Positions 9,802 through 41,288 of a DNA stretch of 64,000 nt are shown in pieces. This DNA is from an uncultured Anaerolineales bacterium (GTDB lineage: Bacteria; Chloroflexota; Anaerolineae; Anaerolineales; UBA11858): NCBI GenBank assembly GCA_964344175.1, contig CAYFMI010000010.1:243-64242 (forward strand), given 5' to 3'. Each line of letters begins with the position of its first letter. Position 1 is the first letter of the stretch. The notes under the pieces are model-generated. The model was not told where the DNA came from and did not search any database. It saw only the letters and a list, made by a program, of their open reading frames with translations. The translations under genes were made by a program, and so were the position numbers.

Positions 9802-9953
9802 GGTCCCCCGAATCGCACATTCGGGGTCGTTTTTTTACTTTCCCCATCTCCCCAACCCCCCTCCCCCGCAATTCGGGGGAGGGGCCAGGAGTGGGGGTAA
9901 ATATTTTTTTCAGTTCAGATGCACAGAAAGAATAAATTTGGGGGTGCCTCATG
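9797..9953. mobile_element. MITE/REP-like intergenic repeat, copy 1
   Basis: It aligns along its whole length with 50760..50918. The ends are inverted (CATGAGGTCCCC ... GGGGTGCCTCATG). Internal hairpins are CCCCGAAT/ATTCGGGG and CCTCCCCCG/CGGGGGAGG. No coding capacity is evident. Confidence 0.6.
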
Positions 9954-9955: not shown

Positions 9956-11194
9956 TTATCCGCAACCGCCGCCCGATGGGGCGCGTTTCAGTTCGAGTTT
10001 GATCTTCCTCTCGAATTCCATCTCATGGGCAAGATCAAGATCAGGGTAAGCAGCCGGGCAGCCAGAGCCGAGGGCGGCGGTGAATTCATAGCGCAGTTCA
10101 TCATCGGCGCCTGCTTTGATGCCACCGCAGAAATCTTCTTCAAATTCGGTGCCAAAGATGTCTAGCCAGTTGTTGATGCCCCCCTCGAGGATATACACAT
10201 TGGGAACCGATTCGGCGACCATGTGTTTCCATACATCCGTGGCAGAAGTTTCGTCATTACTCATCACCACGAAGACAGTATTGGCGGGTTGCGCAATGAA
10301 TTCGTCGATATGACGGCTAATTTCAGTGGGGAGGATATTTTCAGCATCGAGTAGATGGAAAAGATTATAGTCTGCCTCGCTGCGTACATCGATCATGATG
10401 ATATTCAATTTATGATCGTGCCAGCTTTCCAGCAGTTCGCCGGGGTGGATCTGAAATTGGCGGGCTTCCAGGGCCGGGCCTTTTTCAGGGAGTAAGCGTT
10501 CCCAGCGGTCTTCGGTCGTCGGCTGGCCGACAAAAATCAGACCGACCGCCACCAATACCAGCGCACCGGCGCCAAAATAACGCGCCTTCGGCGCTTTTTT
10601 AGGGTCGATCCCGCCGTAGATTTTCTCGAGTTGTTCGCCACCCCAGAACATAAACAGCGCCATTAACACAACGAGGAGTACTACCCACCCTGTAGGTAGG
10701 CCTAAAAACTCAGGCAGGGTGAAGCGTCCCATATACGATGAGTTGAAAAAAATGTCGTACAAATCTACGCTTTCGCCAAAAACGAAGATCCCGAAGATGG
10801 TACCCAGGGCAAAAAAGATACCGTCAATTTTTAATGTGGCCGCACCGACCAGCGAAGTGCCTGGTCAGTAACCGCCAACGATGAACCCGATCCCCATTAT
10901 GAAGCCGCCAATAATCCCAGGCCAGAGATAAGTGGGGTTGACATAGATCAGGTTGTAATCTAATAATCCAATTGCTGATGCCGAAAATACCAGTACCATC
11001 GCCACAATGATGGCAGTGAACATGACCTTAAGTACGGTCAGGTTCTTGAAGTAAAACTGAGCCGCCAATAAGGGGGAGTTCGCAAAGCCAGAGATTTCGA
11101 GGACATAGCCAAAGGCAAAACCAATCATCAAGAAAACCAGATTGACGCCAATGGGTAGGAATATTTCTGCGAGAGGGAGAGGGAATGGAGACAT
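9956..11194 (-). CDS. YeeE/YedE-family sulfur/selenium transporter half fused to TM segments and a rhodanese-like domain; needs in-frame UGA (10865-10867) decoded, candidate selenoprotein
   Basis: ORFs 10865..11194 and 9956..10762 share one frame, and all 34 codons between them are sense. The TGA falls in GFIVGGY-[TGA]-PGTSLVG. The sequence after the TGA continues as a hydrophobic helix, IDGIFFALGTIFGIFVFG. The rhodanese fold contains IIMIDVRSEADY...ILEGGINNW. The alternative model is two separate genes. Confidence 0.5.
10837..10851 (-). other. candidate bacterial SECIS stem-loop (UGGUC-GGUGC-GGCCA) 13 nt 3' of the UGA
   Basis: It was read on the minus strand. The stem is 5 bp including one G-U pair, and the loop is GGUGC. 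A second possible hairpin, GACCAG-N8-CUGGUC, includes the UGA itself. Confidence 0.25.
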
Positions 11195-11206
11195 GTTATT
11201 GTTCCT

Positions 11207-11779
11207 TTAGTTCCATAGTTTGCGCACAAAATAGGCCAGAGCATAGGCGCCGCCAAATACGGCAAACATAAAAGCCCAGCTTCCTGTGGAAAGTACCGCG
11301 CCGCCAGAAAGCGCTTGCCCCGAGGTGCAGCCGCGCGCCAGACGGGCGCCAAAGCCCATGAACGCCCCGCCAACAAAGGCCATCAGCCAGCGTTTGCGGT
11401 TTGATATATTCGGTCCTTTACCGGTTTCGGGCTTGATGCGTCCATGTAGCCAGCCGGAGAAGAAACCGCCAAGAAGCACGCCGGTGGTTACAAAGACGAT
11501 CCACGAATCGAGCGGGTTCTTGCTGCCGCCAGCCATCGCCAGGAGATAGGGCGTTAGGTCAACGTGCTTAGGGGCAATCAAATCTTCGAAGAAAACCAGA
11601 AAGCGATTCAGTCCGCCTGAGGCCCCTAGGCCGCTCCCGGTGATGAAGAACGACAGAAATAACACGACACCAAGTACCGCGCCCCCCAGGTATGCGTTGA
11701 CGTGATCTTTCTTTTCGCGTTGAAAAATGAACTTTTTCAACGCCGAGGCTTTCTTGGGTGAATGAGTTGCAGTTGTCAT
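11207..11779 (-). CDS. YeeE/YedE family membrane protein (sulfur-transport domain)
   Basis: The 190-aa polytopic protein has the motif GARLARGCTSGQALSGG typical of the family. It lies directly upstream of the second YeeE-like ORF. Confidence 0.7.
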   Translation of the reverse strand: MTTATHSPKKASALKKFIFQREKKDHVNAYLGGAVLGVVLFLSFFITGSGLGASGGLNRFLVFFEDLIAPKHVDLTPYLLAMAGGSKNPLDSWIVFVTTGVLLGGFFSGWLHGRIKPETGKGPNISNRKRWLMAFVGGAFMGFGARLARGCTSGQALSGGAVLSTGSWAFMFAVFGGAYALAYFVRKLWN

Positions 11780-14538
11780 TCTTGAGATTCCTCCTCGGCT
11801 GGGGCATGTACTTCAACTTCGTCCCAGCCCATCATCATAGCTTTGATGCCGGCCATTGGGGTATGACCGGTCGTTGTCAGGTAAACGTGCATCACAATAA
11901 ACGATGCGAACATCCAGGCGACCAGGGTGTGGAAAGGCCCCAAGAAAGGCAGCCCACCCAAACTTTCCGCGATACTGGGCCAGCGTTGCGCGCCCCAGAT
12001 GAGAATGCCGGTGATTCCTTGCAACGGCAGCAGTACATTCAGGATGCCGAAATAGGTCACTTGTTGGAGTGGGTTGAGTTTTCGGCGGGTCGTTTTCTCA
12101 AAGGGATGTTCCGCTCCTTTGAAGATGCCGTTCAGGTAAAATTTTGTCTGGGTGATGGCTTGGTCGAAGAAACCGCGCGGTCTAGGAATGTATTGTTGGA
12201 TTTCGCCGCTGACCAGGTGGTAGAACAATGACAAGGCTGCGTTTATCGCCAGGATGGCGGCGACGATGTTGTGGACGATGACAACCCCGCGGAAACTAAA
12301 CATGCCGAAAGTGTCCGGTTTGTGGATAATCAACCCGGTGAAGAGCAAAAGTACAATGGCGAAGGTTTGCAGCCAATGCCACAGCCGCTCGTAGACGGTA
12401 TACATGTACACGTTTTCAATGCGCGCCTCATGTGTTGGTTGCCGCATTGAAGAATACACACGTAAGCCGCCGTGGGCTACGATCCCTAGCAGAACGCCCA
12501 TAAACATTAGCGATCCGGCCAGGTCTATCCACCCAAGGTTGTTGTGTCCGAGAATGTATAAGTCATTCTGATCGGTATCGGGCCGATAGAACAATGCGCC
12601 GCTTTCATCGGTGTAGATCTCGCCGTCGAGAATTGTGTTCGTATCATTAACGAATTCAGGCATCACACTGCCGGGCGCGTATGACGATAGTTGAATTGGC
12701 TGAGTAATGCGGGATTGTGCACCATGGCAGGCGGCGCAATCTTTCAGCGCCCCATCGCCGCCGACAACATTGTGATTGATGCTGTAGGGTTGCACTTCGC
12801 CTACAATGCGGGGATTCCCCAACCCGATGCGTGTCAGACGGTCTTTGATGAACTGTTCTTTCTCCGATGTATCTATGAGTAGTTCACTTTCATCAAGACT
12901 TCCATCCTGGTTTCCATCGAAGCGCAGCAGTACACCGGGGAGATAATCGCCATTTTCTACATATGCCGCTTGCAAGTCATCCATTCGTACAGGGCGAGGA
13001 GGGTCGCCATAGACCCAGAACCAGGTGGTGATCAAGTTGTGGGGGGCCAGACTGTTGCCACCATCGACATCGGTGCTGGGGAGCAAGACGGGTTCGTACC
13101 CTACCATCAGCGACCGCATGGTATCCTCATCGCCCTCGATGCCGCGACATTCTGTGGCTGCCTGGCCTTCGAGGGTTATCACTGTCCAGTCGTGCTGCAT
13201 ATTCGATGATGAGTACATTTGCGGTATGTGGCAACTTTCGCAGCTAATTGCGGTCATATGGCGGTCTTTGTAAGGCAGCCATTCGTGTGTGTTTTCTACG
13301 CTATGGCAGGAGGCGCACCGCCGCATGGTGTCTTTTAATTCTGGGGCCACCGTGCCCTGGGCGCTATTGCCGCGGGCAAATTGATGGAGCGGCTTTTCAA
13401 GGTAGTCACCAATTTCCAGCCGACGGGGATCGAAGAGCAAGTGTTCGGGCAGTGTACTTTCAGACTCGCGGAAGTAGAGCGGGTTGTTAAGCGAATAGTG
13501 GCAATCGGTGCAGTTTAGCAGGCGTTCTGCGTGCACATCCCAGGGGCGGTTGAGCGTTTCTTTGTTTGCCAGGTTCATGCCCGAATCGGCTAGTTTTTGC
13601 GGTGAGATGATTTGCCCGGTTGTGATGGTGCTCCAGCGTTCGGCAGAGCAGCCCAGCATGACGAGAGGATCTTCTACGTTGTCATGCACCAGACCGTGGC
13701 ACAAGCCGCAATTATCGTTGGTGGGATCTTGAATGATGGGGAGTTCCGCCGAGAGTTCGCCCTCGGTGTTGAAGGCTGCCGCGTTCCAGGTGTAGGTGTC
13801 GCCGCTTTGTTCAACGATGCCGGTTCCCACCAGGGTGGCGGTATTGGCCCAGCCGAAGTTGCCGCGTTGAATCGCTTCTACGCGGGTTTCGTTGTTGGGG
13901 GAGGGAATATGGCAAAGGAAGCAATTCATCTCGATAACGCCGGATGCGCGCCAATCCCAGCCGACCATTTCGCCGGTGTCCTCATCGATGGTAGCTGTCT
14001 CTGGGTTGGTTGGATCAACCTCGAGGCTGGTCAGAGGTTCCCCGCTTTGGGCGTAAATGGCAGGTCCGCCACCGACGTGCCGCGTCCCATAGAGTTGAAT
14101 CCACATCGGGGTGGTTAAGTCAATCCGTTCATCTCCCGCCGGTGAGAGATAGCGATAGCCAATCGAATTCCACTTCCCGAAAAATCCGGGGCTGATATCC
14201 CAGGCGCGTTGGCTGGTGGTTGTGCCGGGTTCGGTGATTTCGTGCAGCCCAATGCTGGCATGGAAACTATGCTGTTCGATGAAATCGGCATTGTGGCAGG
14301 CCCCGCAGGTTTGCATGGTGGATACTGCCGCTCCTGAATCGAGAACGTTGACGCCATTCTCGTCGAGGAAGGGGAAGGTGGGGTGGATGGGGGAGAGTTG
14401 TGGGGCGGTGTTGATTGCTCGCTTGGCTTGGGCGAAGTCCCTCGTGACCAAAACTGCCGCGAACAAGAGCATCACTGCCATGCCGATGAAGATGATTCGT
14501 CGAGTTTTTCGTGGACGAAAGGTAGGTTTTGTTGGCAT
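11776..14538 (-). CDS. heptaheme c-type cytochrome fused to a C-terminal diheme-type cytochrome b (FdnI/PhsC/HydC-like) membrane domain
   Basis: The N-terminus is a signal anchor. There are 7 CxxCH motifs (CGACH, CFLCH, CGLCH, CTDCH, CASCH, CESCH, CAACH). The C-terminal TM helices carry YERLWHWLQTFAIVLLLFTGLIIH and further conserved His residues. Confidence 0.75.
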   Translation of the reverse strand: MPTKPTFRPRKTRRIIFIGMAVMLLFAAVLVTRDFAQAKRAINTAPQLSPIHPTFPFLDENGVNVLDSGAAVSTMQTCGACHNADFIEQHSFHASIGLHEITEPGTTTSQRAWDISPGFFGKWNSIGYRYLSPAGDERIDLTTPMWIQLYGTRHVGGGPAIYAQSGEPLTSLEVDPTNPETATIDEDTGEMVGWDWRASGVIEMNCFLCHIPSPNNETRVEAIQRGNFGWANTATLVGTGIVEQSGDTYTWNAAAFNTEGELSAELPIIQDPTNDNCGLCHGLVHDNVEDPLVMLGCSAERWSTITTGQIISPQKLADSGMNLANKETLNRPWDVHAERLLNCTDCHYSLNNPLYFRESESTLPEHLLFDPRRLEIGDYLEKPLHQFARGNSAQGTVAPELKDTMRRCASCHSVENTHEWLPYKDRHMTAISCESCHIPQMYSSSNMQHDWTVITLEGQAATECRGIEGDEDTMRSLMVGYEPVLLPSTDVDGGNSLAPHNLITTWFWVYGDPPRPVRMDDLQAAYVENGDYLPGVLLRFDGNQDGSLDESELLIDTSEKEQFIKDRLTRIGLGNPRIVGEVQPYSINHNVVGGDGALKDCAACHGAQSRITQPIQLSSYAPGSVMPEFVNDTNTILDGEIYTDESGALFYRPDTDQNDLYILGHNNLGWIDLAGSLMFMGVLLGIVAHGGLRVYSSMRQPTHEARIENVYMYTVYERLWHWLQTFAIVLLLFTGLIIHKPDTFGMFSFRGVVIVHNIVAAILAINAALSLFYHLVSGEIQQYIPRPRGFFDQAITQTKFYLNGIFKGAEHPFEKTTRRKLNPLQQVTYFGILNVLLPLQGITGILIWGAQRWPSIAESLGGLPFLGPFHTLVAWMFASFIVMHVYLTTTGHTPMAGIKAMMMGWDEVEVHAPAEEESQE

Positions 14539-14637
14539 TTGCGAAATATCCTTATCTTGGATGATAGCTTTTCGAGAGCCTGACAGATATCTTTTAGGCT
14601 GAGGGGCTATCAGGTTTCTTTTTGTCGATTCTTAGGT

Positions 14638-16086
14638 TCAGGGCTGATAGCTGTTCGAGCGGAAGCGTCCGCCCCAGTCGATGGGGTCGCCATAATAGCC
14701 GAGGGCTTCCCAATCCATGCGGCCGTTTTCGCCGTGACAGTTATCGCAGGTTAATGCGTCGGAGGCCGGGCTGACCATGTGAGTGGTCGGCCAGTACATT
14801 TCAGTTTCGGCAAAATCGTATTGACCGCTGTAATCGAGACCGACGATTTCAGAGCCAAGCGCCAGCGCTTGATCCCAGTCGAAATCATGCCAGAACCCAC
14901 CTTCCCCGTAGGTAACCGGTTGCAGCAGGATGTTGTAGACGGCATCGTAGGGCTGCTTGGCACGATGGACTTTGAAGGGCCAAATTTTTGCCCCCGGGTC
15001 GGTAATATCCCCATTGGGTATATTGATCGGTGTGGAGACGGATGGATCCATCACATCGCCGAAGATATAGCGACCGGCGGTGCCGTTGTACCAGGCAAAT
15101 TCAGGCTGGAAGTTGGAAGTGTATACGAAGCTGCCCTTGATTTTTAAATAATCGTGAACATTTTCTTCGATGTCGTCGCTGCCAGCGGTGGACCAATCCC
15201 AGTACATTTTTGTGGCATCGCGCGTGGCAGCAACCGGGATGTGACAAGTCTGGCAGGCAACGGCCTGAACATGAGCGTTGATGCGGTCATCTTCGTGGAG
15301 GTCTTCATTATGACAGTCGGTACAGTAAATTTGGTTGGTATTGTCCAGGCTGACAGAAATTGAGCGGCCGCTGATGTTGTGGGCTTCGGTTTGGTGGCAG
15401 TCAGTGCACAAGAAATCGTGCTTGCCCATATGAACATCGACGCTTTCGGGAGGAAAGTAGAGGGTTTCATCAAGGTCGCCGTGTTTTACTGCGTTACCGC
15501 CCCCGCCATTGAAATGACAGCCACCACAGTTTTCGCGCGTTGGCATCGCTACGCTTTGGGCGGCGGTCAGCAGGTCAACGCCTTCAGCAGGGTATCCCGC
15601 AGCGCTTTTTACATAGATGCCGGAGTTGTCGTGGCATACCAGACAGTCAATATTCTCTTGATTCGAAAAATCGAAATTGGCATCATCCCATCCATACCCG
15701 GCATGGCAGGATGTGCAACCTGCCCAGTTGCCTTGAATGCCAATGCAGAAGTTGTTGATCGAATTTTTCTTGCCAACGGTTATGGGGCCATCGCGCCCGG
15801 GCAGGGTGTAGGGTTCGCTTTCCCATGTCCAATGGGCTGTTTGCATGACTTCGAACCCGGCATTTTCGTGACATTCCAGACAAGCACGGGTGACATCAGA
15901 CCCGTTTTCGTAGGGGCCTTCGATGATGTCGCTATGGTCGGTGTGCGGAATTCGAAGAGGGACATTCTCCCAGGGCGCATCGTTAGTTTGTTTTTCGCCG
16001 TTGGTAGTGAAAATGACAATAGGGACGATAAGGATTGTCAATGTGATCGTTAATCCTAACAACCAGATAAATTTTAAGTTTTTCAT
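14638..16086 (-). CDS. octaheme c-type cytochrome, tetrathionate reductase (Otr)-like family, copy 1
   Basis: A signal anchor is followed by 8 CxxCH motifs. The N-terminal signature is CLECHENAGFEVMQTAHWTW. It is a paralog of 43171..44718. Confidence 0.65.
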   Translation of the reverse strand: MKNLKFIWLLGLTITLTILIVPIVIFTTNGEKQTNDAPWENVPLRIPHTDHSDIIEGPYENGSDVTRACLECHENAGFEVMQTAHWTWESEPYTLPGRDGPITVGKKNSINNFCIGIQGNWAGCTSCHAGYGWDDANFDFSNQENIDCLVCHDNSGIYVKSAAGYPAEGVDLLTAAQSVAMPTRENCGGCHFNGGGGNAVKHGDLDETLYFPPESVDVHMGKHDFLCTDCHQTEAHNISGRSISVSLDNTNQIYCTDCHNEDLHEDDRINAHVQAVACQTCHIPVAATRDATKMYWDWSTAGSDDIEENVHDYLKIKGSFVYTSNFQPEFAWYNGTAGRYIFGDVMDPSVSTPINIPNGDITDPGAKIWPFKVHRAKQPYDAVYNILLQPVTYGEGGFWHDFDWDQALALGSEIVGLDYSGQYDFAETEMYWPTTHMVSPASDALTCDNCHGENGRMDWEALGYYGDPIDWGGRFRSNSYQP

Positions 16087-16190
16087 AGCGTGTAAATCCT
16101 ATTTTGATAAGCGCAACTTAGAAGGACGTGCCCGGCTTGGGGGGCAGAATTCTTCTAGCAAGTTGATGTTGTCACGAGGGAGTTTGTTGG

Positions 16191-16556
16191 TTACTTTGAA
16201 TTGGTGGCTTCTTCGACAAGGTAAGCACGATGGGTCAGCCGGTCGTATAGGACAGTGCGCAATAAATCCAATGCTTCGATAAGACGCTTATCGCTGAGGC
16301 GATATTCAACACTAGCGCCTTTGCGGGTGGCGCTAACCAGCCCGCGCTGGCGAAGGATTTTCAAATGCCTGGAAGTGGCAGGCTGGCTAATGCCGATAGA
16401 ATCGGCCAGGTCGCCGACGCTCCAGGGGCGCTCGGCAAGCTGATAGATCATCAATATTCGCCTAGGATCTGCCAGGGCAGAACAGATTTCTGCGTGGAGT
16501 TGATTGATTTCTTGAACGAGATCAGATTTTGTCATGGGTATCATAGCCTTATTCAT
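16191..16556 (-). CDS. ArsR/SmtB-family transcriptional regulator, copy 1
   Basis: The HTH region is LADPRRILMIYQL...VGDLADSIGISQPATSRHLKILRQRGLV. The protein has a single Cys (EICSAL). An internal ATG (Met8) is an alternative start. Confidence 0.8.
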   Translation of the reverse strand: MNKAMIPMTKSDLVQEINQLHAEICSALADPRRILMIYQLAERPWSVGDLADSIGISQPATSRHLKILRQRGLVSATRKGASVEYRLSDKRLIEALDLLRTVLYDRLTHRAYLVEEATNSK

Positions 16557-16618: not shown

Positions 16619-16896
16619 TGGGGGGCGGCCGAATGTCATGTAGATATGACAATAATTGTGATATGTAAAAACTATGTGTCATACGATAAAAAAGATAACC
16701 AATGTCTTATTTGGCGCGTAAAAAATAACCAGCCGCCCACAGGCAACTGGTTAGCTAGGATCATCAAATTTTAAACTTAGAATCGATCTAAAAAATGCTC
16801 TTGGCAGGTTTCCATATCCGCCGATTATTTTTGGATAGGTGCTTAGGAATTCCCCCCTGTGAGATACAATTGCTCAATTTGTGAGTGAGGCAAGTA

Positions 16897-17808
16897 TTAG
16901 ATCAGGGGATAGGGGTACGGTAAATCCAAAATAAATTCCCAGAAAGCACTTTGAGCAATGGTGGTCGGGCGGTTGGTATTACGCCCAATGTAAATATTGC
17001 GGTGGATATTTAGGCCATCAATTTGGATGGGCACTACCCGCCCATAGCCAAGCTTGCGAACGATGATCTCGGACACAAAGCCAACGCCAAGCCCTTCTTG
17101 CACCGCGAGTGCAATCGCTTCGGAATTCCCTAACGTCATGAGAATGTCGAGGGAATTTGTATTCACATCAATTTCGGATAAGGCGGCGTTAACAACAATA
17201 TAGGTGCCGGAATCGATTTCCCTCATCAGGAAATTTTCTTCGAATAACTCTCCGGGCTGGATGATCCCTCTCTGCGCCCAGGGGTGCTCGTTTGGAACAA
17301 TGAGGCTGATCGTGTCTTCGAGAAATTTATGAAATTCAATATTCTTGCAAGGCACTCCCGTTTCACTGGTCAGGGCAAAATTAACGTGGCCCAGGCTGAG
17401 CATTTCAATAGCTTGCGATTGGGGAGATACCTGGCAGGTGATACGGACTTTTGAATATTCGTGGTGAAATTTCGTCAACAAATGGGGGAGGATATATTTC
17501 CCGGGGGTTGTGCTACACCCAACGATGAGATGCCCAAAAACCTCGCCCTGGAGCGATGCCATTGTTTCCTCGATATGAATCGAGTGTCTGACCATTTCCC
17601 TTGCCAGCGGCACAAGCGTGATGGCCGCGTCGGTTAATTGCAAACTACGTGTAGAGCGGATGAAGAGGGGTACTTGAAAATACCGCTCTAGCGCCTGGAT
17701 ATGCTGGCTGACACTGGGTTGGCTCATTCCTAGTTGTTGAGCCGCCTGCGTGAAATTCAGTGAATCAGCTGCAGCTAAAAAGACATTGAGTTGATGGGCA
17801 TCTAACAT
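16897..17808 (-). CDS. LysR-family transcriptional regulator, copy 1
   Basis: The N-terminal HTH is LNVFLAAADSLNFTQAAQQLGMSQPSVSQHIQALE, followed by a LysR substrate-binding domain. ATG 17808 is preferred over the track start TTG 17835. Confidence 0.8.
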   Translation of the reverse strand: MLDAHQLNVFLAAADSLNFTQAAQQLGMSQPSVSQHIQALERYFQVPLFIRSTRSLQLTDAAITLVPLAREMVRHSIHIEETMASLQGEVFGHLIVGCSTTPGKYILPHLLTKFHHEYSKVRITCQVSPQSQAIEMLSLGHVNFALTSETGVPCKNIEFHKFLEDTISLIVPNEHPWAQRGIIQPGELFEENFLMREIDSGTYIVVNAALSEIDVNTNSLDILMTLGNSEAIALAVQEGLGVGFVSEIIVRKLGYGRVVPIQIDGLNIHRNIYIGRNTNRPTTIAQSAFWEFILDLPYPYPLI

Positions 17809-17854
17809 AATATCGCTCTGTTCAAATGATAACAACCCTTTATATTAGCAAACA

Positions 17855-17870
17855 AGTGATAAAGATCACA
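17855..17870 (-). promoter_or_regulatory. CRP/FNR-type palindrome TGTGA-N6-TCACT in the lysR/cytochrome divergent region
   Basis: The plus strand reads AGTGAtaaagaTCACA. The site lies 47 nt upstream of ATG 17808 and 132 nt upstream of ATG 18002. Confidence 0.4.
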
Positions 17871-18001
17871 GATATATAGAAGTTGCTTATCATTTATTAT
17901 AAGTAGATTGCATAAGCTTGGGTTATTTTCGTCACTAGGAATTATGACATTTTCTTATTTATAATTCAGATTGTGAAATCGAGAACAAGCAGGAAGGTAA
18001 A

Positions 18002-19399
18002 ATGAATAAACTTAGGCCTTTTTATTTTTTTCTAGCAATTCTTGTTATCATTGGAGTGGCCGCTTTTGCAAATATGGGGATAGCCAACGCACTCCCATTA
18101 GAAGACGCCATACCTGTTGAAGAGCCTTCAGATAAAGCTGCTGAAGGGGTGGATGAATGCGTTGTCTGCCATTCTGATAAGGAAAGACTTGTGAGTTCGG
18201 CGAAAGCAGAAGAAGTTTCCGAAAGCGAAAACGAAGGAGAGGGCTGAGGGGGCGAAGTGGCTCCGTTGGAGCCCTGGGAAAAAGTTCTTCTAGATGAGAC
18301 CTTTGCTGAAACAGTTCATGGGAGCATTGCTTGTATGGAATGCCATAGCGGGCAGCAGTCGAGTAACAAAGAAACTGCTCATACCGATTTGATCATCGCT
18401 CCGAGTACGGATCCTGGGAAAGCCTGTGGAACTTGCCATGCTGAGATTGTCGAAGTTTATCCGTCCAGCTTGCATTCATCGCAGCAGGGTTATTGGACCA
18501 TGATCGAAGCGCGCAGCGTGCCTGAAAACCACGTTGCTCTCGAAGAAATGTTCGGCAATCATTGTTCGAGTTGCCATACCGATTGCGGTGATTGCCATGT
18601 CAGTCAGCCGACTTCGGTGGGGGGGGGCTTTATCAATGGTCATATATTCAACGCGACCCCCTCGATGACACGCAACTGCACCGCCTGTCATGGCAGCCGG
18701 GTGGGAAATGAGTACCTGGGCAAACATGAGGATATCAAGGCGGATGTCCACTTTCGTCAAGGGCGCATGAAATGCACCGACTGTCATACGGCAGAAGAAA
18801 TGCACGGTGATTATGCGGCCCTGGGAATGCAAGAGACCCCCGATCACCGTTACTCTGGTGGACAACTTCCTGCCTGTGAGGATTGCCACGATGTAACCCA
18901 ATTTGAGACCCAATATCTGGTGTCCCACAAGGTCCATAGCGCCTTAGCCTGTCAGACCTGCCACTCAGTGTCCTATACCAGTTGTGATGGCTGCCATGTT
19001 CAAGTGAGCGAGGAGTCTGGCAAGCCGTATTTTTCCACAGAAGGGACGTATATGACCTTCTATATTGGCAAGAACCCACTCCAAAGCGCCGAACGCCCCT
19101 ATGAGTATGTCACGCTGAGGCATATTCCTGTTGCTGAAACCAGCTATCAATACTATGGGGAGAATCTGCTCCCCAACTTCGACGCCTTGCCCACCTGGGC
19201 ATACGCCACCCCTCACAATATTCAGCGGGTAACGCCACAAACAGAATCTTGCACAATCTGTCATGACAACCCCGAAATCTTCCTGACAGCCGATAAGGTT
19301 TCTCCCCTGGAGCGGAACGCAAACCAATCTGTGATTGTCGAAGAAATTCCCGAGTTAATTATGGAGAGCTTTGGCGCAACTGAGCCGAGTGATCCTTAA
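18002..19399 (+). CDS. 11-heme c-type cytochrome requiring in-frame UGA (18245-18247) decoding; candidate selenocysteine-containing multiheme cytochrome
   Basis: ORF 18002..18247 (signal peptide plus CVVCH) and ORF 18257..19399 (10 CxxCH, no signal peptide) are in the same frame. They are separated by TGA plus GGG GGC GAA. A hairpin lies 11 nt after the TGA. The alternative model is two genes with the second starting at GTG 18257. Confidence 0.55.
18259..18273 (+). other. candidate bacterial SECIS stem-loop GGCUCC-GUU-GGAGCC
   Basis: A perfect 6-bp stem with a GUU loop begins exactly 11 nt 3' of UGA 18245-18247. Confidence 0.4.
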
Positions 19400-19435
19400 T
19401 TTTGTAGCAATATCAAAATTATTAAGGAGATGATT

Positions 19436-21127
19436 ATGAAAAAGAAGCTACACGTTGTTCTCTCAGTGCTTGTTCTCGCGAGCATGCTGGTAGCAGCAAT
19501 GCCTGTATTTGCGGATTCGCACATGGCAGACCTTGATGCTCCCTATAGCGCAATGTTGGGCAGTATGGTGGGCTATAACACCGTCAAAGCCGATGGTTTG
19601 CTGGTTGAGATGGCCGAAGATGAGCCGCCTTTCTTGCTCGATGTTCGTACCACCCCTGAGCTGGAAGAGAACGGCCACATCGAAGGGGCTGTGCATATCC
19701 CCTTGGCTGAATTGGCCCAAAATCTCGATTTGTTGCCTGCCTTCGATACCCCCATTGTGACCTATTGTGGCAGTGGCTGGCGTGCCACCATTGCAATGAC
19801 ATCGCTCTACGCGCTGGGGTGGGCCGATGTGCGTGCGCTCAAGACCACATTCGCTGATTGGGTAGGAGCGGGTAATCCGGTTGCTGAAGGTGTTCCCGAA
19901 GTTGTTGCTTTGAATGCAGCCGAGCCCGATGTTGAAGCAGTTGCGCTTGTGGACGCTGCCCTGGCGGCTTATGGCGTTGCTCCCTACGGTGTCATTGATG
20001 CCGAAGGTCTCAATACTGCTTTGGTAGAAGACCCCGAAATGGTTATTATCGACGTGCGCACCCCCGGGGAATGGACAGGTAAGGGTGTGATTGACACCGG
20101 TGATGTTGAACTGATCAACCTGCCTTTACAGCGATTTGTTGCCCAGAAAACTCTATGGCCTGTCGATAAAGACACCCACATTGTTGTCTACTGCGGTAGT
20201 GGGCACCGTTCCACAATGGCGATGGCTATTTTGTGGACCTATGGATATACCAATGTCTCCAGCCTGAAAGGTGGATTTGGTGGTTGGACAGAAGCAGAAT
20301 ATGCTGCTGTTGAGTATGCTGCGCCAGATTTTGCCACGCCTTATGCAGATATGCTAGCCAATATGGCTGGTTACAATACGGTTAAGGCGGATGGTTTACT
20401 GGTCGAGATGGCTGAAGATCAACCGCCCTTCTTGCTTGATGTGCGCACTACCCCTGAGCTGGAAGAAAACGGCCATATCGAAGGGGCGGTGCATATTCCC
20501 CTGGCTGAACTGGCTGCGAACCTGGATCTGTTGCCCGCTTTTGATACCCCCATCGTAGCTTACTGCGGCAGCGGCTGGCGTGCCACCATTGCCATGACCG
20601 CGTTGCATGGTATGGGTTGGACTGATGTGCGTGCCCTCAAAACAACCTTTGCTGATTGGGTGGCGGCTGAGAACCCAGTTGTCGAGGGTGTTCCTGAAGC
20701 CGTAGCCCTGGATGTTGCCGAAGTGGATCCCAAGGTGGCCGTTTTCAAAGATGCTACTCTGGGCGCTTTTGGTGTCAAGCCTTATGGTGTTCTCACTGCA
20801 GATGTGCTGAACACGGAGTTGGTCGAAGATCCTGAGATCATTGTGATTGACGTTCGACGCACAGATGAATTGGAAGAGAATGGCGTCATTGATGTTGGTG
20901 AAGCGACTCTAGTTCACATTCCGTTGGAAGAGTTCATCACTCAGTTGGAGAGCTGGCCTGCAGAGAAGGATGCCCATATTGATGTCTACTGCGGCAGCGG
21001 ACACCGCTCTACAATGGCAATGGAGATGTTATGGGCCTTTGGGTACACGAATGTCTCTAGTTTGAAGGGTGGCTTTGGCGGATGGGTAGAAGCTGGATAC
21101 CCGGTTGCTGAATACGTTGCTCCCTAA
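19436..21127 (+). CDS. exported protein with four rhodanese domains (thiosulfate/persulfide sulfurtransferase-like)
   Basis: The signal peptide is LVAAMPVFA/DS. The four active-site loops are YCGSGWRATIAM (two copies) and YCGSGHRSTMAM (two copies). An AAGGAG RBS lies 6 nt before ATG 19436. Confidence 0.8.
   Translation: MKKKLHVVLSVLVLASMLVAAMPVFADSHMADLDAPYSAMLGSMVGYNTVKADGLLVEMAEDEPPFLLDVRTTPELEENGHIEGAVHIPLAELAQNLDLLPAFDTPIVTYCGSGWRATIAMTSLYALGWADVRALKTTFADWVGAGNPVAEGVPEVVALNAAEPDVEAVALVDAALAAYGVAPYGVIDAEGLNTALVEDPEMVIIDVRTPGEWTGKGVIDTGDVELINLPLQRFVAQKTLWPVDKDTHIVVYCGSGHRSTMAMAILWTYGYTNVSSLKGGFGGWTEAEYAAVEYAAPDFATPYADMLANMAGYNTVKADGLLVEMAEDQPPFLLDVRTTPELEENGHIEGAVHIPLAELAANLDLLPAFDTPIVAYCGSGWRATIAMTALHGMGWTDVRALKTTFADWVAAENPVVEGVPEAVALDVAEVDPKVAVFKDATLGAFGVKPYGVLTADVLNTELVEDPEIIVIDVRRTDELEENGVIDVGEATLVHIPLEEFITQLESWPAEKDAHIDVYCGSGHRSTMAMEMLWAFGYTNVSSLKGGFGGWVEAGYPVAEYVAP
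19535..21127 (+). repeat. tandem intragenic duplication (about 798-bp unit, two copies) of a two-rhodanese module
   Basis: Unit A begins at 19535 and unit B at 20333. Long stretches are near-identical at the DNA level, for example GATGGTTT.CTGGT.GAGATGGC.GAAGAT... Confidence 0.8.
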
Positions 21128-21740: not shown

Positions 21741-21898
21741 GTTGTTTGATGATCACCCAGACCGTTAAATGAACTACGCCATGAAAGGAGGTGATGCTCC
21801 AAAAAAATAATATTACAGCTACACCAAATCTAATGGTTATTCCTATTTGGATTTGGTACACTTTTTTGTTTGCACGATACATTGTAGAGGAGAATAGA

Positions 21899-24097
21899 AT
21901 GCAAAAAAGAATCTTTATCATTGCTCTGATGGTGGCCCTCAGCCTTGTGCTGGTAAGCTGTGCTACACCAGATGCACTCGAATGCCCGGATTGTCCGGCT
22001 TGTCCTGATGCAGAATGTCCAGAAGCACCGGCTTGCCCTGAAGCAGAGCCTTGCCCAGAATATGAAGCCATCCTCCCTGAGATTGAGGCTGCATGGGCTG
22101 GCTCCGGCCACGCGGCCGCAGACGCTGAAGCGTTCCGCCATTGGGATGAGGACGATCCTGCTGTGGTGTCATTGGCCTGTGCCAAATGCCACAGCACTGC
22201 TGGTTATGTAGAATACGTCGGCACTGGCGTAGTGACGGCAGAAACCCCTGCTGAGGAAAACCTGGGTGTGATGTGTGTGGCTTGTCACAACGAATTCACA
22301 GCCGAAAAAGGCAGTGTGGTAATGCCCTCAGGTATTGAACTTTCTGGCCTGGGTGATGAGGCTCGCTGTATGGAATGCCATCAGGGACGCCATTCAACAG
22401 TCAGTGTAAATAACGGCATTGCAGCGGCGGCTGGTATTGAGGTTGTCGTCCCCGAAGATGCCGAAGATCCTGCTCATGCGGCTATCGCAGCGGCTGCCGA
22501 AGCCGCTGCTCAGGCTGACCCTGACGCAGTATACGAAGATCTAGGCTTTGCCAACATCCACTACTTTGCTGCGGCTGCCACCAAGTATGGCACCTATGCA
22601 AAAGGTGGTTATGAATATGCGGGCAAGACCTATGATGGCAATTTTGCGCATGTTGAAGAATTCGACACCTGCATCGAATGTCATGATCCACATACCCTGG
22701 AAGTTCAGGTTGAAGGGTGTGTCATGTGCCACGGCGAAGGTGAGCCTGCTGGCTACCGCATGTATGGTTCGGCGGTGGACTACGATGGTGATGGTGACTT
22801 AGAAGAAGGTATTGCAGCCGAGATTGCCGGTTTGCAGGAAACGCTGTATGCTGCACTTCAGGCATATGCGGCGGATACGGTTGGTACAGGCATCATCTAC
22901 GACTCCCACGCTTATCCTTACTTCTTCAATGATAGCGATGGCGATGGTGCGGTTACCGAAGGCGAAGCCAATTATGGCAATAAATATGCCACCTGGACAC
23001 CTCGCCTGGCCCGCGCGGCCTATAACTATCAGGTTTCCCTGAAGGACCCCGGTGGTTATGCCCATGGCGGTAAGTACATCATCCAATTGCTGTATGACTC
23101 CATCGAAGATTTGGGTGGCGATGTAGCTGCTTTGCACCGTGATGACCACGCCCACTTTATGGGTTCCGCCGAAGCCTTCCGCCATTGGGACGAAGATGGC
23201 GAAGTTTCAGGTAGCTGTGCTCGCTGTCACTCAGCGGACGGCTTGCCCTTCTACCATGAAGCCGGTGTCAACGTGGCAACAGAGATCTCCAACGGCTTCC
23301 AGTGTGAAACTTGCCATGCTGGTGAGTGGCCCGGACGCCTGGCGTTCCCCGCTGTGACATTCCCCAGTGGTGCGACCGTTGAGGTCGCCGAGGGCGATGA
23401 GAGCGGCCTGTGTATGCAGTGTCACCAGGGCCGTTCCTCGACCGTAACCGTCAATGGGATGGTAGCCGATCTGCCTGGTGACGAAGTGTCTGATAGCCTG
23501 CGTTTCTCTAATATCCACTACTTTGCTGCAGGTGCCTCTCGTTATGGCACTGAGGCTCAGGGCGGCTACGAGTTCGATGGCAAGGAATACGTTGGGTACT
23601 TCGAACATGTGGCCGGGTATGACACCTGCACCGCCTGTCACGACGCCCATGCCCTCGAAGTCAAGACCGCAGAATGCTTCACCTGCCACGCTGGCTATGA
23701 AGACGTCAAAGACATCCGCATGTCAGAAGTAGACTATGATGGCGATGGTGATGTTGCCGAAGGCATTGCAGGCGAAGTCGAGACTATGGCTGCTGCCCTC
23801 TACGATGCCATAAAGGCCTATTCTGCAGAGATTGGCTTCCCGGTCGTCTACGAATCTCATAGCTATCCTTACTTCTTCGCCGATGCTAATGGCGATGGTG
23901 AGGCTACGCCTGACGAAGCCAACTATGGCAATCGCTATGGAACCTGGACCCCGAACTTGCTCGAAGCGGCTTACAACTACCAATATGCCCTGAAAGATCC
24001 CGGTGGCTTTGCGCATAATGGCAATTACGTTCTACAATTGCTCTATGACAGCATCCAGGCTGTTGGCGGCGATGTTGCCGGAATGACGCGTCCGTAG
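21899..24097 (+). CDS. lipoprotein decaheme c-type cytochrome with Cys-Pro-rich stalk and internal duplication
   Basis: The lipobox is LVLVSC. The CP-rich segment is CPDCPACPDAECPEAPACPEAEPCPE. There are 10 CxxCH motifs arranged as two 5-heme halves (AEAFRHWDED...). A GAGGAG RBS precedes ATG 21899, and the track start at 21791 is rejected. Confidence 0.8.
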   Translation: MQKRIFIIALMVALSLVLVSCATPDALECPDCPACPDAECPEAPACPEAEPCPEYEAILPEIEAAWAGSGHAAADAEAFRHWDEDDPAVVSLACAKCHSTAGYVEYVGTGVVTAETPAEENLGVMCVACHNEFTAEKGSVVMPSGIELSGLGDEARCMECHQGRHSTVSVNNGIAAAAGIEVVVPEDAEDPAHAAIAAAAEAAAQADPDAVYEDLGFANIHYFAAAATKYGTYAKGGYEYAGKTYDGNFAHVEEFDTCIECHDPHTLEVQVEGCVMCHGEGEPAGYRMYGSAVDYDGDGDLEEGIAAEIAGLQETLYAALQAYAADTVGTGIIYDSHAYPYFFNDSDGDGAVTEGEANYGNKYATWTPRLARAAYNYQVSLKDPGGYAHGGKYIIQLLYDSIEDLGGDVAALHRDDHAHFMGSAEAFRHWDEDGEVSGSCARCHSADGLPFYHEAGVNVATEISNGFQCETCHAGEWPGRLAFPAVTFPSGATVEVAEGDESGLCMQCHQGRSSTVTVNGMVADLPGDEVSDSLRFSNIHYFAAGASRYGTEAQGGYEFDGKEYVGYFEHVAGYDTCTACHDAHALEVKTAECFTCHAGYEDVKDIRMSEVDYDGDGDVAEGIAGEVETMAAALYDAIKAYSAEIGFPVVYESHSYPYFFADANGDGEATPDEANYGNRYGTWTPNLLEAAYNYQYALKDPGGFAHNGNYVLQLLYDSIQAVGGDVAGMTRP

Positions 24098-24129
24098 TTG
24101 TTTTAGTGTGGACGTGCAATGCTTTACAA

Positions 24130-24162
24130 AGACCGGGTGCCTCGCGCACCCGGTCTCTTTTT
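24130..24162 (+). terminator. rho-independent terminator after the decaheme gene
   Basis: GACCGGGTGC, a short loop, GCACCCGGTC, then TCTTTTT. Confidence 0.7.
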
Positions 24163-24300
24163 AGAGTATGGCTGGATCCCTCCTTGCATTGCGGCGTGCC
24201 TTTTCAAGGGCAAGAATGGAGTAGTCGTGTACCCCCGTTAGCAGGTGAGGGATTATTGTTCAACATAACCTTTGATTTGAGATATATATAATTAGCTCTT

Positions 24301-24329
24301 TTCACTCGATAAGATGATCTTGGTATAAT
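24301..24329 (+). promoter_or_regulatory. sigma70-like promoter candidate TTCACT-N17-TATAAT, possibly giving a leaderless kinase mRNA
   Basis: The -10 element at 24324-24329 ends 6 nt before ATG 24336. Confidence 0.3.
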
Positions 24330-24335
24330 CAATTT

Positions 24336-25841
24336 ATGCACCCTTCGGCAGGTTTGATCTTAGTTTTCTTTTTCTATGGGTTGGCCTTTTTCTCAATGGG
24401 ACTTATTGTGGCCATTGAGCGTGGACGCGGCACAGATGAGCGTCTGCGCCACGCTTTGCGTCCACTGATCGGGTTTGGCCTGATTCATGGTGGGCACGAG
24501 TGGCTAGAGATCTTTGAGATTCTGCATGTACTCCCCGGACAAGAAGCTGCCCCCCTGGCGTGGCATAGTATCCGTACGGCTCTGTTGGCTTTTTCCTTCT
24601 TCTCACTGACCGCTTTTGGCGCTTCCCTACTTTCACCAACCCCCCAAATCCGCCGCCTGAGTATGATTGCCCCCTTGGTACAAGCGGCAATATGGGGTTT
24701 CGGTTTGCTCTATTTTGCCGAACAATATGATGTACAAGATGAATTATGGGTAGTGGCAGATGTGTGGACACGCTACGTTGTAGCTATTCCAGGCTCACTG
24801 GTGGCTTGTCTGGGGCTTATCAATCAACAACGGGTGTTTCGCCTGGCAGGTTTAGAGCGCTTCAGCAGAGATAGCCTGTGGGCCGCAGTCGCTTTTGCCT
24901 GGTATGGATTGATTGGGCAATCGTTTACACGGGCCAGCCCTATTCCGCCTTCGACGTTTCTGAACCAAGATTTATTCCAAGAAGTGTTTGGATTTCCTGT
25001 GCAGTTGTTACGGGCGGCAGCAGCCATAGCCGTTGCCATTTTTGTCGTGCGCTTCCTGCGCTCTTTTGAGGTTGAAACTCAGCGTAAGATTGGCGAACTT
25101 CAGGCGGCGCGCCTGCTTGAAGCTCAACGTAAAGAAGCCCTGCGCGGCGAACTACTGCGCAGAGTGGTTGCCGCTCAAGAATCTGAGCGTCAGCGGATTG
25201 CCCGAGAGTTACATGACGAAACGGGTCAGGCATTGACCGCACTTGGATTAGGATTGCGGGGTGTCTCTTCAACCGTGCGAACGGATCTTGATAAAGCCTC
25301 GGGCAACCTCCGCCAACTTGAAGGGATGGCCGTGCGCTCCCTGGATGAACTTCGGCGTCTCATTTCCGATTTGCGGCCATCCCATTTGGATGATCTGGGC
25401 TTGGCGGCTGCTATCCGGTGGTATGTCGGCGACATTCATGATCGAGCCAGTTTAGATATTGATCTCGATATTCCACCAGATGAAGAATGTAATTTACCCA
25501 GTACCATCAGCACAACCTTGTTTCGCGTAGTGCAAGAGGCGCTGACGAATATCGTCAAACACGCCTGCGCCGAGCACGCCTGGGTGCGGCTTGGGCGCCG
25601 AGATGGCATTGTAAGGCTTGAAATTGAGGATGATGGCATTGGTTTGGTGGATGACATGCATTTTGCACAGGGTCAACCCGCGTGGGGGTTGCTGGGCATG
25701 GAAGAACGCGCCCATTTGCTTGGTGGTGAGTTTCATCTGAAATCTAGGCCCGGAGATGGAACACGCATCACCGTGTTAGTCCCTTGCCCAGATAGTTTGC
25801 TCGAAGAGGAAGAAGATGATACGACTATTGTTGGTGGATGA
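24336..25841 (+). CDS. sensor histidine kinase, NarX/DegS-type (HisKA_3) with polytopic membrane sensor domain, copy 1
   Basis: About 6-7 TM helices carry FFYGLAFFSMGL and HGGHEWLEIF. The H-box is ERQRIARELHDETGQ, followed by an HATPase_c domain. It is a paralog of 36413..37942. Confidence 0.8.
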   Translation: MHPSAGLILVFFFYGLAFFSMGLIVAIERGRGTDERLRHALRPLIGFGLIHGGHEWLEIFEILHVLPGQEAAPLAWHSIRTALLAFSFFSLTAFGASLLSPTPQIRRLSMIAPLVQAAIWGFGLLYFAEQYDVQDELWVVADVWTRYVVAIPGSLVACLGLINQQRVFRLAGLERFSRDSLWAAVAFAWYGLIGQSFTRASPIPPSTFLNQDLFQEVFGFPVQLLRAAAAIAVAIFVVRFLRSFEVETQRKIGELQAARLLEAQRKEALRGELLRRVVAAQESERQRIARELHDETGQALTALGLGLRGVSSTVRTDLDKASGNLRQLEGMAVRSLDELRRLISDLRPSHLDDLGLAAAIRWYVGDIHDRASLDIDLDIPPDEECNLPSTISTTLFRVVQEALTNIVKHACAEHAWVRLGRRDGIVRLEIEDDGIGLVDDMHFAQGQPAWGLLGMEERAHLLGGEFHLKSRPGDGTRITVLVPCPDSLLEEEEDDTTIVGG

Positions 25842-26463: not shown

Positions 26464-26503
26464 CGGAATTATTTCTACTGGAATTGCAGTAAGAAACTCG
26501 CCC

Positions 26504-26545
26504 AAAAAGAGTGCCACAGCACATTTGACTGCGGCACTCTTTTTG
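26504..26545 (+). terminator. rho-independent terminator after response regulator copy 1
   Basis: AAAAAGAGTGCCACAG, a loop, CTGCGGCACTCTTTTT. Confidence 0.7.
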
Positions 26546-26603
26546 GTTATGTTGGTCAGTCCTAAATTTCGCAAACCCTTGTCTAAAGTCAGATACGCTT
26601 GTG

Positions 26604-26623
26604 TATGGGGTATCTGCCCCATA
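26604..26623. promoter_or_regulatory. palindrome TATGGGG-N6-CCCCATA upstream of the cytochrome/NrfCD operon
   Basis: A perfect 7-6-7 inverted repeat. Its core TGGG-N8-CCCA is shared with 36306..36331. Confidence 0.35.
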
Positions 26624-26961: not shown

Positions 26962-26975
26962 AAGCGAGGACTGTA

Positions 26976-27326: not shown

Positions 27327-27341
27327 AGAGGACGATTAACA

Positions 27342-28274: not shown

Positions 28275-28292
28275 GGGAGAGCGAGGTGCATT

Positions 28293-29066: not shown

Positions 29067-29067
29067 T

Positions 29068-41277: not shown

Positions 41278-41288
41278 GATGCACTCCT

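Follow-up and report, generated by a model that had tools for sequence, protein, structure and literature searches.

A crystal structure of the octaheme c-type cytochrome Otr has been available since 2004, and the physiological role of the protein is not agreed. Cytochromes b of the PhsC/FdnI type usually form the quinol/quinone site of reductases, and in CbcL of Geobacter sulfurreducens, a quinol oxidoreductase, a cytochrome b is fused to a multiheme c domain. Here we analyse a locus in which relatives of these proteins are encoded next to a YeeE-type channel. It lies in a 64-kb stretch of DNA from an uncultured Anaerolineales bacterium (hereafter the window, meaning the whole stretch analysed, whose positions serve as coordinates) and consists of five co-directional minus-strand open reading frames (ORFs) at 9956-16556. 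They code for an ArsR-type regulator, an Otr-family cytochrome, a fusion of a heptaheme domain to a cytochrome b, a YeeE-like protein of 190 residues (YeeE190) and a YeeE-rhodanese protein with an in-frame UGA codon. The last four genes form a conserved cassette.

Among channels, YeeE/TsuA proteins import thiosulfate (PMC7449682, PMC11073785); E. coli YeeE requires a YeeD/TsuB partner (PMC11073785), and the function of StYeeE needs C91 and C293, both of which are indispensable (PMC7449682). Half-size PmpA/PmpB YeeE pairs have already been described (PMC11582611), and YeeE/YedE-family selenoproteins with the motif GUxSG are listed in review (PMC13188914), so that YeeE/YedE is a known selenoprotein family. 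An otr gene next to a cytochrome b561 gene was noted once, in an Ignavibacteria metagenome-assembled genome (MAG; PMC7509429). Every component family of the cassette is thus already known. The invariant combination is without description in the literature searched, in which few subscription journals were covered: we found no account of the four-gene cassette, of an outward pseudo-rhodanese with a GGGCG tail, or of the two selenocysteine (Sec) sites reported below. The original prediction had likewise known of no description of the arrangement.

A conserved four-gene cassette

Species-representative genomes were scanned with an alignment of the fusion protein, which matched at least 600 stretches, at least 588 of them confirmed relatives. 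For the synteny count, the window proteins were compared by tblastn with all fetched homologous loci (labelled by L-numbers), of which 93 had at least 5.6 kb of upstream DNA. In all 93, the genes for Otr, the heme/cytochrome b fusion and YeeE190 were found upstream of the YeeE-rhodanese gene, on the same strand and in the same order, an arrangement far beyond chance. The synteny expected by the original prediction is therefore conserved for these four genes, and not for the fifth: arsR was also present upstream of otr in 65 of the 93 loci and was undetected by tblastn in the proteobacterial ones. The ArsR-type regulator is an addition to the core in Chloroflexota. Two homologue look-ups returned the same order of ArsR, Otr, heme/cytochrome b, YeeE and YeeE-rhodanese.

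The cassette spans at least four phyla (Chloroflexota, Gammaproteobacteria, Acidobacteriota and Gemmatimonadota). Its chloroflexotal hosts are many MAGs of Anaerolineales, Caldilineaceae and Ardenticatenaceae; the others are MAGs of Chromatiaceae, Lysobacterales and Xanthomonadales, one of Acidobacteriota and one of Gemmatimonadota. An isolate, Vibrio hangzhouensis CGMCC 1.7062, has all four genes intact, with the tail SGGCA. Clustering of the flanking ORFs in the fetched loci revealed no recurrent neighbour besides ArsR; the four-gene core is therefore self-contained, as had been supposed of the whole unit. A Caldilinea aerophila MAG (L053, 1-5061) has the YeeE pair, with a rhodanese-like match at 655-924, and no heme/cytochrome b gene by tblastn in the 3.2 kb upstream. 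It may be an exception to the synteny, a cassette-free YeeE-rhodanese pair, and was left out of the 93-locus count because its flank is too short.

The five genes had been described as tightly spaced. This is accurate for the last three, as YeeE190 starts on the stop codon of the heme/cytochrome b gene (ATGA overlap, 11776-11779) and is followed by a spacer of 12 nt (11195-11206) before the YeeE-rhodanese gene; the remaining two intergenic gaps are of about 100 nt each, so truly tight spacing ends there. A strong intrinsic terminator at 16726-16753 closes the co-directional LysR gene that precedes arsR and sets the 5' limit of the unit, and a scan of the window sequence found no comparable terminator within the five genes. 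A promoter-like site downstream of that terminator (16655-16682, 9/12 matches) is weak and no better than in shuffled sequence.

The octaheme protein belongs to the Otr family. It scored 569.4 bits against TIGR04315 (family cutoff 375) and 508 bits against Otr of Shewanella oneidensis (PDB 1SP3), and its segment GKKNSINNFC, with the heme ligand Lys56 and Cys64, aligns residue for residue with 1SP3. The G-K...NNFC motif recurs among the cassette homologues, and eight CXXCH motifs are present in the window protein as well as in 60 of 62 of them. The original prediction had left room for an assignment to another octaheme family; the two matches together with the ligand motif rule out MccA, ONR, HAO and IhOCC. 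The cassette Otr is the predicted catalytic reductase of the unit, with its active site on the external side of the membrane.

Identity to the Shewanella protein reaches about 50-58% over the whole catalytic domain, but the two differ in several respects. The window Otr keeps an N-terminal membrane anchor or signal sequence, and in the Otr tree the cassette proteins form a clade of their own, apart from the Shewanella/Desulfuromonas type and from a second paralogue in the window. A gene context shared with the characterised Shewanella Otr was ruled out, as the order there is monoheme cytochrome c, DUF3373 and otr, with neither a cytochrome b fusion nor YeeE; in Malonomonas, otr is an orphan gene. 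The second window paralogue (43171-44832, minus strand, 553 residues) scored 566 bits against TIGR04315 and is 41% identical to the cassette Otr. It falls outside the cassette clade and lies directly upstream of an ArsR-SQR-DsrC-DsrE2 gene cluster.

The 920-residue fusion protein comprises an N-terminal anchor, a heptaheme c domain predicted to face outward and a C-terminal cytochrome b of the PhsC/FdnI type. The latter scored 76 bits against PF01292 (cutoff 30); its best named match was the PhsC model NF011582, at 143 bits below the cutoff of 204, and by these scores it is a member of the PF01292 family and no PhsC orthologue. Seven CXXCH motifs were counted in 58 of 66 homologues, and His689, 721, 739, 756, 811, 870 and 884 of the cytochrome b domain are invariant or nearly so. 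The fusion is thus a predicted quinol dehydrogenase and electron wire, which makes the quinol-oxidising module of the original prediction plausible. Like CbcL (cited in PMC11492766) and Salmonella PhsC, it couples a membrane cytochrome b of the FdnI/HydC/PhsC type to periplasmic redox centres. It differs from CbcL in having seven hemes instead of nine, in a domain without significant match to CbcL models, and its partner is an Otr-type enzyme, whereas PhsC and CbcL serve either a molybdoenzyme or a chain for extracellular electron transfer.

One YeeE-type channel is split between the two small membrane proteins, in agreement with the YeeE/YedE pair of the original prediction. YeeE190 scored 83 bits against PF04143 at profile positions 162-309, and the YeeE-rhodanese protein 51.3 bits at positions 11-156 (cutoff 27 for both). 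Residues 88-183 of the former align to the second half of StYeeE (236-325), which places the cysteine of its RGCTSG motif on C293 (GGCNIG in StYeeE); residues 22-185 of the latter align to the first half (6-178), with GGY-U-PG on GGCASG and hence the UGA codon on C91. The fold family of StYeeE/TsuA-TsuB (PDB 6LEO, 8J4C), Sulf_transp, and the two cysteines, one per half, are kept. The window version differs in being split into two genes, in lacking C22 and a YeeD partner, in having Sec for C91 and in bearing an additional pair of transmembrane (TM) helices and a rhodanese-like domain, predicted to face outward, with a Cys tail. As TsuA equivalogs the two proteins fell short: their scores were 32.5 and 17 bits, while the models NF052577 and NF041049 have cutoffs of 400 and 645.

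Similar in layout are PmpA/PmpB of Serratia and Hyphomicrobium, in which adjacent genes encode a C-terminal-like and an N-terminal-like half with one conserved Cys each, proposed to act as a heterodimer (PMC11582611). Those proteins are of about 130 residues and carry no extra domain, whereas the PmpB-like half in the window has two more TM helices, the rhodanese-like domain and the Cys/Sec tail, and cytochrome genes are the constant companions of the pair.

Pseudo-rhodanese domain, flexible tail and selenocysteine

The terminal domain of the last protein matches PF00581 at 41.6 bits (cutoff 22.2). In an AlphaFold2 (AF2) model of a homologue 75% identical to the window protein it has a rhodanese fold, with a predicted local distance difference test score (pLDDT) of 82-90 and Foldseek TM-scores of 0.7-0.78 to single-domain rhodaneses. 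The terminal rhodanese of the original prediction therefore stands as a fold and falls as a classical sulfurtransferase, since the catalytic Cys is absent: the loop reads M-S-N-D-E almost invariantly, and only 2 of 142 sequences have Cys at that position.

StYeeE has its N-terminus outside; the four TM helices within H1-H6 end outside, and H7 returns the chain inward (PMC7449682). Past the StYeeE-like part, the window protein continues with an H7-like TM helix, a K/R-rich loop, one extra TM helix and the soluble domain. The mean numbers of K plus R per loop in the 142 sequences (0.4, 2.4, 0.07, 1.2 and 5.3) fit an N-out orientation with the domain outside. The rhodanese-like domain thus probably faces outward, beside the cytochromes, and this predicted side of the membrane, together with the Cys-less loop, speaks against the cytoplasmic acceptor of imported thiosulfate that the original prediction had envisaged. 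In the C-terminal extension of the domain, Cys356 and Cys379 are both present in 14 sequences, both absent from 121 and discordant in 7; their co-occurrence suggests a lineage-specific extracytoplasmic disulfide.

At the extreme C-terminus, a tail KRAPxGGGCG (RAPSGGGCG in the window) is nearly invariant, with the tail Cys in 140 of 142 sequences; its last 11 residues are predicted to be disordered in the AF2 model (pLDDT 25-33). As conservation has it, the residues that matter in this protein are the pore Cys/Sec and the GGGCG tail. SoxY of the Sox system has a C-terminal carrier arm, GGCGG, which is likewise a glycine-flanked Cys at the extreme C-terminus of an extracytoplasmic protein and predicted to be flexible; that the tail of the window protein would carry sulfur covalently, as that arm does, is our proposal. 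The likeness is one of analogy only. SoxY has an immunoglobulin-like fold and a SoxZ partner, whereas the domain described here is rhodanese-like, tethered to a channel and tailed by GGGCG or SGGCG, and no soxZ was found in the cassette.

The frame of the YeeE-rhodanese gene (9956-11194) is open except for a TGA at 10865-10867, in the context GGY-TGA-PGT. At this site all 120 best database homologues read GGFCPGT, and among 142 unique homologues the pore position never departs from Cys, Sec-type genes being counted as Cys. The same TGA is found in two independent metagenome contigs (L085 and L086) of 88-89% amino-acid and 79-80% nucleotide identity. Between these and the window, 165-190 synonymous codon differences contrast with 41-46 non-synonymous ones over the gene, and 15-18 with 4 over the 34 codons from the UGA to the next possible start, which speaks for purifying selection across the UGA. 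A Caldilineaceae MAG of 52% identity (L073) has acquired TGA at the same pore codon independently.

Downstream of the codon, a candidate selenocysteine insertion sequence (SECIS) was identified, namely the hairpin UGGUC-GGUGC-GGCCA in the window clade and GGUAGC-GGUC-GCUACC in L073, both with GGU at +22 to +24 in an apical loop of 4-5 nt. This geometry matches that of the fdhF SECIS in E. coli, whose loop contains G23 and U24. A GGU-loop hairpin accompanies all four Sec-type sites, as against 2 of the 143 genes of the Cys type (Fisher p = 8e-7, with fewer lineages effectively independent). Codon +7 from the UGA, which is GGU (Gly) in the window clade, encodes Ala or Ser in 141 of those 143 genes. 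Single-sequence folding first predicted another hairpin, which contains the UGA itself and competes with the GGU-loop one, and Rfam searches of the window and of the UGA region yielded no family apart from chance miRNA-like matches elsewhere (see below); Rfam contains no model for the GGU-loop hairpin. A selA gene in the window (542 bits against TIGR00474, cutoff 268; 436 bits against PF03841) indicates that the organism is able to decode UGA as Sec; no selB, selD or tRNA-Sec gene was found within the 64 kb, and neither selA nor other sel genes were found in the flanks of the Sec-type loci. On this comparative evidence the UGA at 10865-10867 is read as Sec at the essential pore Cys (C91 of StYeeE), and the coding UGA of the original prediction is upheld by its conservation in diverged relatives, the intact frame, the SECIS-like hairpin and selA.

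The tail Cys is also replaced. It is TGA in L073 (GGG-TGA-GGC-TGA; region 11225-11300), L027 (~11200-11260) and L078 (~11020-11080), of which the latter two keep Cys in the pore. L073, with TGA at both sites, would be a double selenoprotein. From +17 after the tail UGA, the three share a stem AGCCGC(C/A)-loop-(G/U)GCGGCU in an otherwise divergent 3' untranslated sequence, with one compensatory change from C:G to A:U. Hairpins are also frequent past the stop codons of Cys-type genes (13 of 130), so that what is informative here is solely the sequence and register that the three Sec tails have in common. As L027, L073 and L078 cluster in the Otr tree, their tail Sec probably had a single origin.

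Around 97% of the cassette copies use Cys. One of the two genome-scan patterns required a Cys codon, and the frequency of the Sec form is therefore underestimated. Selenocysteine normally occurs only at redox-active or nucleophilic positions; two Sec sites in one protein therefore point to the pore Cys and the tail Cys as its chemically active residues. In the listed YeeE/YedE selenoprotein WP_012471001.1 a Sec likewise replaces a conserved Cys of a Sulf_transp protein, with the motif GUxSG instead of GG(Y/F)-U-PGT (PMC13188914). Neither GG(Y/F)-U-PGT nor the C-terminal GGG-U-G is on the published selenoprotein list consulted.

Proposed mechanism and alternatives

We tentatively read the cassette, with a confidence just short of even, as a quinol-driven external chalcogen reductase that is linked by a Cys/Sec relay to a YeeE channel. 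It would be a respiratory or sulfur-acquisition unit acting on the outer face of the cytoplasmic membrane. Quinol would be oxidised at the PhsC-like cytochrome b domain of the 920-residue protein, and electrons would pass through its seven c-hemes to the eight hemes of the membrane-anchored Otr. The substrate is proposed to be a sulfur or selenium species; Otr would reduce an oxidised or zero-valent chalcogen, the leading candidates being tetrathionate or other polythionates, polysulfide, or such species on a carrier thiol. The two half-size YeeE proteins would form a PmpAB-like heterodimeric channel, to which the outward rhodanese-like domain is tethered. The conserved Cys-less loop of this domain could bind a sulfur anion, and its flexible GGG(C/U)G tail could capture sulfur as a covalent adduct and move to and fro between reductase and channel mouth. 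Sulfur may then be handed inward over the C293-equivalent Cys and the C91-equivalent Cys/Sec, reaching cytoplasmic carriers such as TusE/DsrC and DsrE2, which are encoded nearby in several genomes.

Comparable associations have been described. A SoxY gene adjoins otr in lucinid symbionts (PMC11237559), and in Geobacter polysulfide is reduced by a multiheme selenoenzyme from a gene cluster in which a rhodanese-like protein is encoded too (PMC13510729). The latter system, MccSep/ExtKL, resembles the cassette in its selenium-assisted sulfur chemistry with multiheme cytochromes and a rhodanese-like protein in the cluster (PMC13510729); it differs in that Sec is located there in the cytochrome and here in the channel and the carrier.

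Several observations weigh against the reductase-relay reading. The only characterised Otr, that of Shewanella, stands in a different clade and gene context, and as it is promiscuous in vitro (tetrathionate, nitrite, hydroxylamine), the substrate of the cassette is not readable from homology. The direction of electron flow is assumed, the topology of the rhodanese-like domain comes from homology to StYeeE and the positive-inside rule, and the membrane half of the AF2 model is of low confidence (pLDDT <50). The free energy of the GGU-loop hairpin is not significant against shuffled sequence (z -0.7 to -1.5), so the case for a SECIS is comparative only, between Sec-type and Cys-type genes and over few independent lineages. 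Neither in the cassette nor among its recurrent neighbours is there a gene for a cytoplasmic YeeD/TusA-like protein. For StYeeE, finally, the proposed mode of passage is hydrogen bonding of intact thiosulfate and no covalent relay (PMC7449682).

A bolder form of the same idea, possible if somewhat unlikely, is redox-coupled group translocation, in which the Cys/Sec arm on the outward pseudo-rhodanese presents a chalcogen adduct to Otr and threads the resulting (seleno)persulfide into YeeE, where the pore Cys/Sec pass the atom on covalently. If this were so, the physiological substrate of this Otr clade would be protein-bound, and the YeeE-family 'transporters' would be membrane-embedded sulfurtransferases instead of anion channels.

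Rather less probable is the scheme of the original prediction, without any covalent carrier, in which free tetrathionate is reduced outside, the YeeE pair imports free thiosulfate and the fused rhodanese processes it in the cytoplasm. Membership of the Otr family, thiosulfate carriage by YeeE/TsuA proteins (PMC7449682, PMC11073785), the strict synteny and the best-scoring cytochrome b family, the thiosulfate-reductase subunit PhsC, all agree with it. The rhodanese, by contrast, lacks the catalytic Cys in its loop and is predicted to be on the wrong side of the membrane; the channel halves, at 32.5 and 17 bits, stay far from the 400 bits demanded of a TsuA equivalog and have no YeeD/TsuB partner, as required by E. 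coli YeeE (PMC11073785). Sec at pore and tail also speaks for nucleophilic or redox chemistry and not for passive conduction.

We regard it as improbable that the cassette serves selenium, with the cytochromes reducing a selenium oxyanion or seleno-sulfur species outside and the YeeE/YedE channel with its Cys/Sec relay importing reduced selenium for selenoproteins or detoxification. YedE relatives have been linked to selenium transport (PMC9312934), the YeeE-rhodanese protein is itself a selenoprotein, and in Geobacter the reduction of selenite and tellurite is influenced by the ext genes, among whose products are multiheme cytochromes and the rhodanese-like ExtH (PMC5877670). Moreover, the best match of two LysR genes of the window is a selenium-metabolism LysR model, and one of them (45026-45961, plus strand, 233 bits) adjoins selA. 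Both LysR scores (220 and 233 bits) are nevertheless below the cutoff of 250, and the LysR gene flanking the cassette is kept only in the closest relatives, L002 and L005, the recurrent regulator being ArsR. The predominance of Cys (~97% of copies) and the sulfur-relay genes that recur as neighbours (SQR, TusE/DsrC and DsrE2) also disagree with a dedicated selenium module, and later work has identified the selenoprotein of the ext genes as a polysulfide reductase (PMC13510729).

Reversal of the electron flow is likewise improbable. Acting like SoxXA or TsdA, the Otr-type enzyme would then oxidise thiosulfate or sulfide, or couple it oxidatively, on the carrier tail and deliver electrons to quinone through the heme/cytochrome b fusion, while YeeE imports sulfane sulfur for oxidation in the cytoplasm, as proposed for SoxT. 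The Cys tail resembles the GGCGG arm of SoxY, and SQR, TusE and DsrE2 genes neighbour the cassette. Against this, oxidation of thiosulfate to tetrathionate cannot thermodynamically drive menaquinone reduction, cytochromes b of the PhsC/FdnI type usually serve reductases, and Otr is known only as a reductase, with a Lys-ligated catalytic heme like that of other reductive multiheme enzymes. The scheme does draw on the SoxY gene beside otr in symbionts (PMC11237559) and on YeeE-like SoxT proteins that import sulfur for oxidation (PMC11582611).

The UGA can hardly stem from a nonsense mutation or faulty assembly, with the last gene a pseudogene or two small genes: gene callers would split the ORF at 10865 and the hairpin energy is not significant against shuffled sequence, but the same UGA is kept in two independent metagenome contigs (L085/L086) with an intact frame and a synonymous excess, it arose independently at the same codon in L073, in three loci UGA also stands at the other invariant Cys, Sec-type genes are set apart by their SECIS-like hairpins and selA lies in the window, which rules out both pseudogene and sequencing error.

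Genomic setting and implications

The features of the locus and of the second sulfur-related cluster in the window are listed in Table 1.

Table 1. Positions in the 64-kb window of the cassette, its signals and related genes
Feature	Position	Strand	Evidence or remark
ArsR/SmtB-family regulator, first gene of the unit	16191-16556	minus	PF01022, NF033788
Otr-family octaheme c-type cytochrome, 482 aa	14638-16086	minus	TIGR04315, 8 CXXCH
Heptaheme/cytochrome b fusion, 920 aa	11776-14538	minus	7 CXXCH + PF01292
YeeE/PmpA-like half-channel, 190 aa (YeeE190)	11207-11779	minus	PF04143
YeeE/PmpB-like half with rhodanese-like domain, 412-aa selenoprotein	9956-11194	minus	PF04143, PF00581
In-frame UGA (Sec), pore position	10865-10867	minus	aligned with StYeeE C91
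Candidate SECIS apical hairpin	10837-10851	minus	GGU in loop, +22 to +24 from UGA
Penultimate Cys codon of the GGGCG tail	9962-9964	minus	TGA in L027, L073, L078
Intrinsic terminator, 12-bp stem and T-run	16726-16753	minus	ends upstream LysR gene
selA, outside the cassette	46505-47860	plus	PF03841 436 bits; TIGR00474 542 bits
ArsR of the SQR cluster	42553-42936	minus	
Type III sulfide:quinone reductase (SQR)	41289-42587	minus	NF049943 655 bits
DUF1641 protein	40597-41370	minus	
TusE/DsrC	40264-40569	minus	
DsrE2	39721-40224	minus	

The cassette ArsR scored 57.9 bits against PF01022 and 82.5 bits against NF033788 (cutoff 55). It was below the equivalog cutoffs for BigR (53.8 bits against 155) and TsoR, and is no orthologue of either by these scores. 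The Cys pair of BigR/SqrR-type sensors was not found in it; Cys25, in the motif LHAxICxALADPxRIL, is its sole conserved cysteine (65 of 66 sequences) and is compatible with thiol-based sensing.

Genes for sulfur relay adjoin the cassette in several genomes. A cluster of ArsR, type III SQR, DUF1641, TusE/DsrC and DsrE2 abuts it in L001, L014 and L016, DsrC and DsrE2 alone neighbour it in L105, and SQR alone does so in L064. In the window, the corresponding cluster (39721-42936, minus strand) is 23 kb away, directly downstream of the second Otr paralogue. Its SQR scored 655 bits on a 'selenoprotein subtype' model (NF049943), yet contains no in-frame UGA and stops at TAA.

Between the convergent gene ends downstream of the cassette, the segment 9806-9903 contains two very stable hairpins, CCCCUCCCCCG...CGGGGGAGGGG and CCCCGAAU...AUUCGGGG, the second of them followed by a T-run on the plus strand. 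The segment folds at -65.5 kcal/mol (z = -3.5) and is probably a bidirectional terminator region; miRNA-like Rfam matches at ~9836-9903 are spurious and fall on this terminator-like hairpin.

On the other side of the unit (16897-21127), a minus-strand LysR gene diverges from three plus-strand genes, for an 81-residue protein, a 380-residue multiheme cytochrome and a secreted protein of four rhodanese domains that keeps the catalytic Cys (CGSGWRA, CGSGHRS). Conserved only in the nearest relatives, L002 and L005, this looks like a second extracytoplasmic pairing of sulfurtransferase and cytochrome. It is followed at 21791-36122 by a dense run of multiheme cytochrome genes with interspersed two-component regulators. 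Encoded in this run are a 768-residue multiheme cytochrome, a set of multiheme cytochrome, 4Fe-4S protein and NrfD (27342-30321), a NapC/NirT-like protein of 567 residues, a cytochrome b fused to a PSCyt1 domain and two further multiheme cytochromes, one with a collagen-like repeat (34854-36122).

The cassette offers a concrete hypothesis for the role of Otr, since one clade of the family is always encoded together with its own quinol dehydrogenase and a YeeE-type channel, and the cultured host Vibrio hangzhouensis makes this hypothesis testable. That Cys has repeatedly given way to Sec, in the pore as well as in the tail, argues that these residues carry out nucleophilic or redox chemistry, and bears on the question of whether YeeE proteins pass their cargo by hydrogen bonding or by a covalent sulfur relay. 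Anaerolineae and Caldilineae of sediments, aquifers and wastewater commonly carry the cassette, and its correct annotation would alter the reading of 'tetrathionate reductase' and 'thiosulfate transporter' calls in metagenomic inventories of the sulfur cycle.

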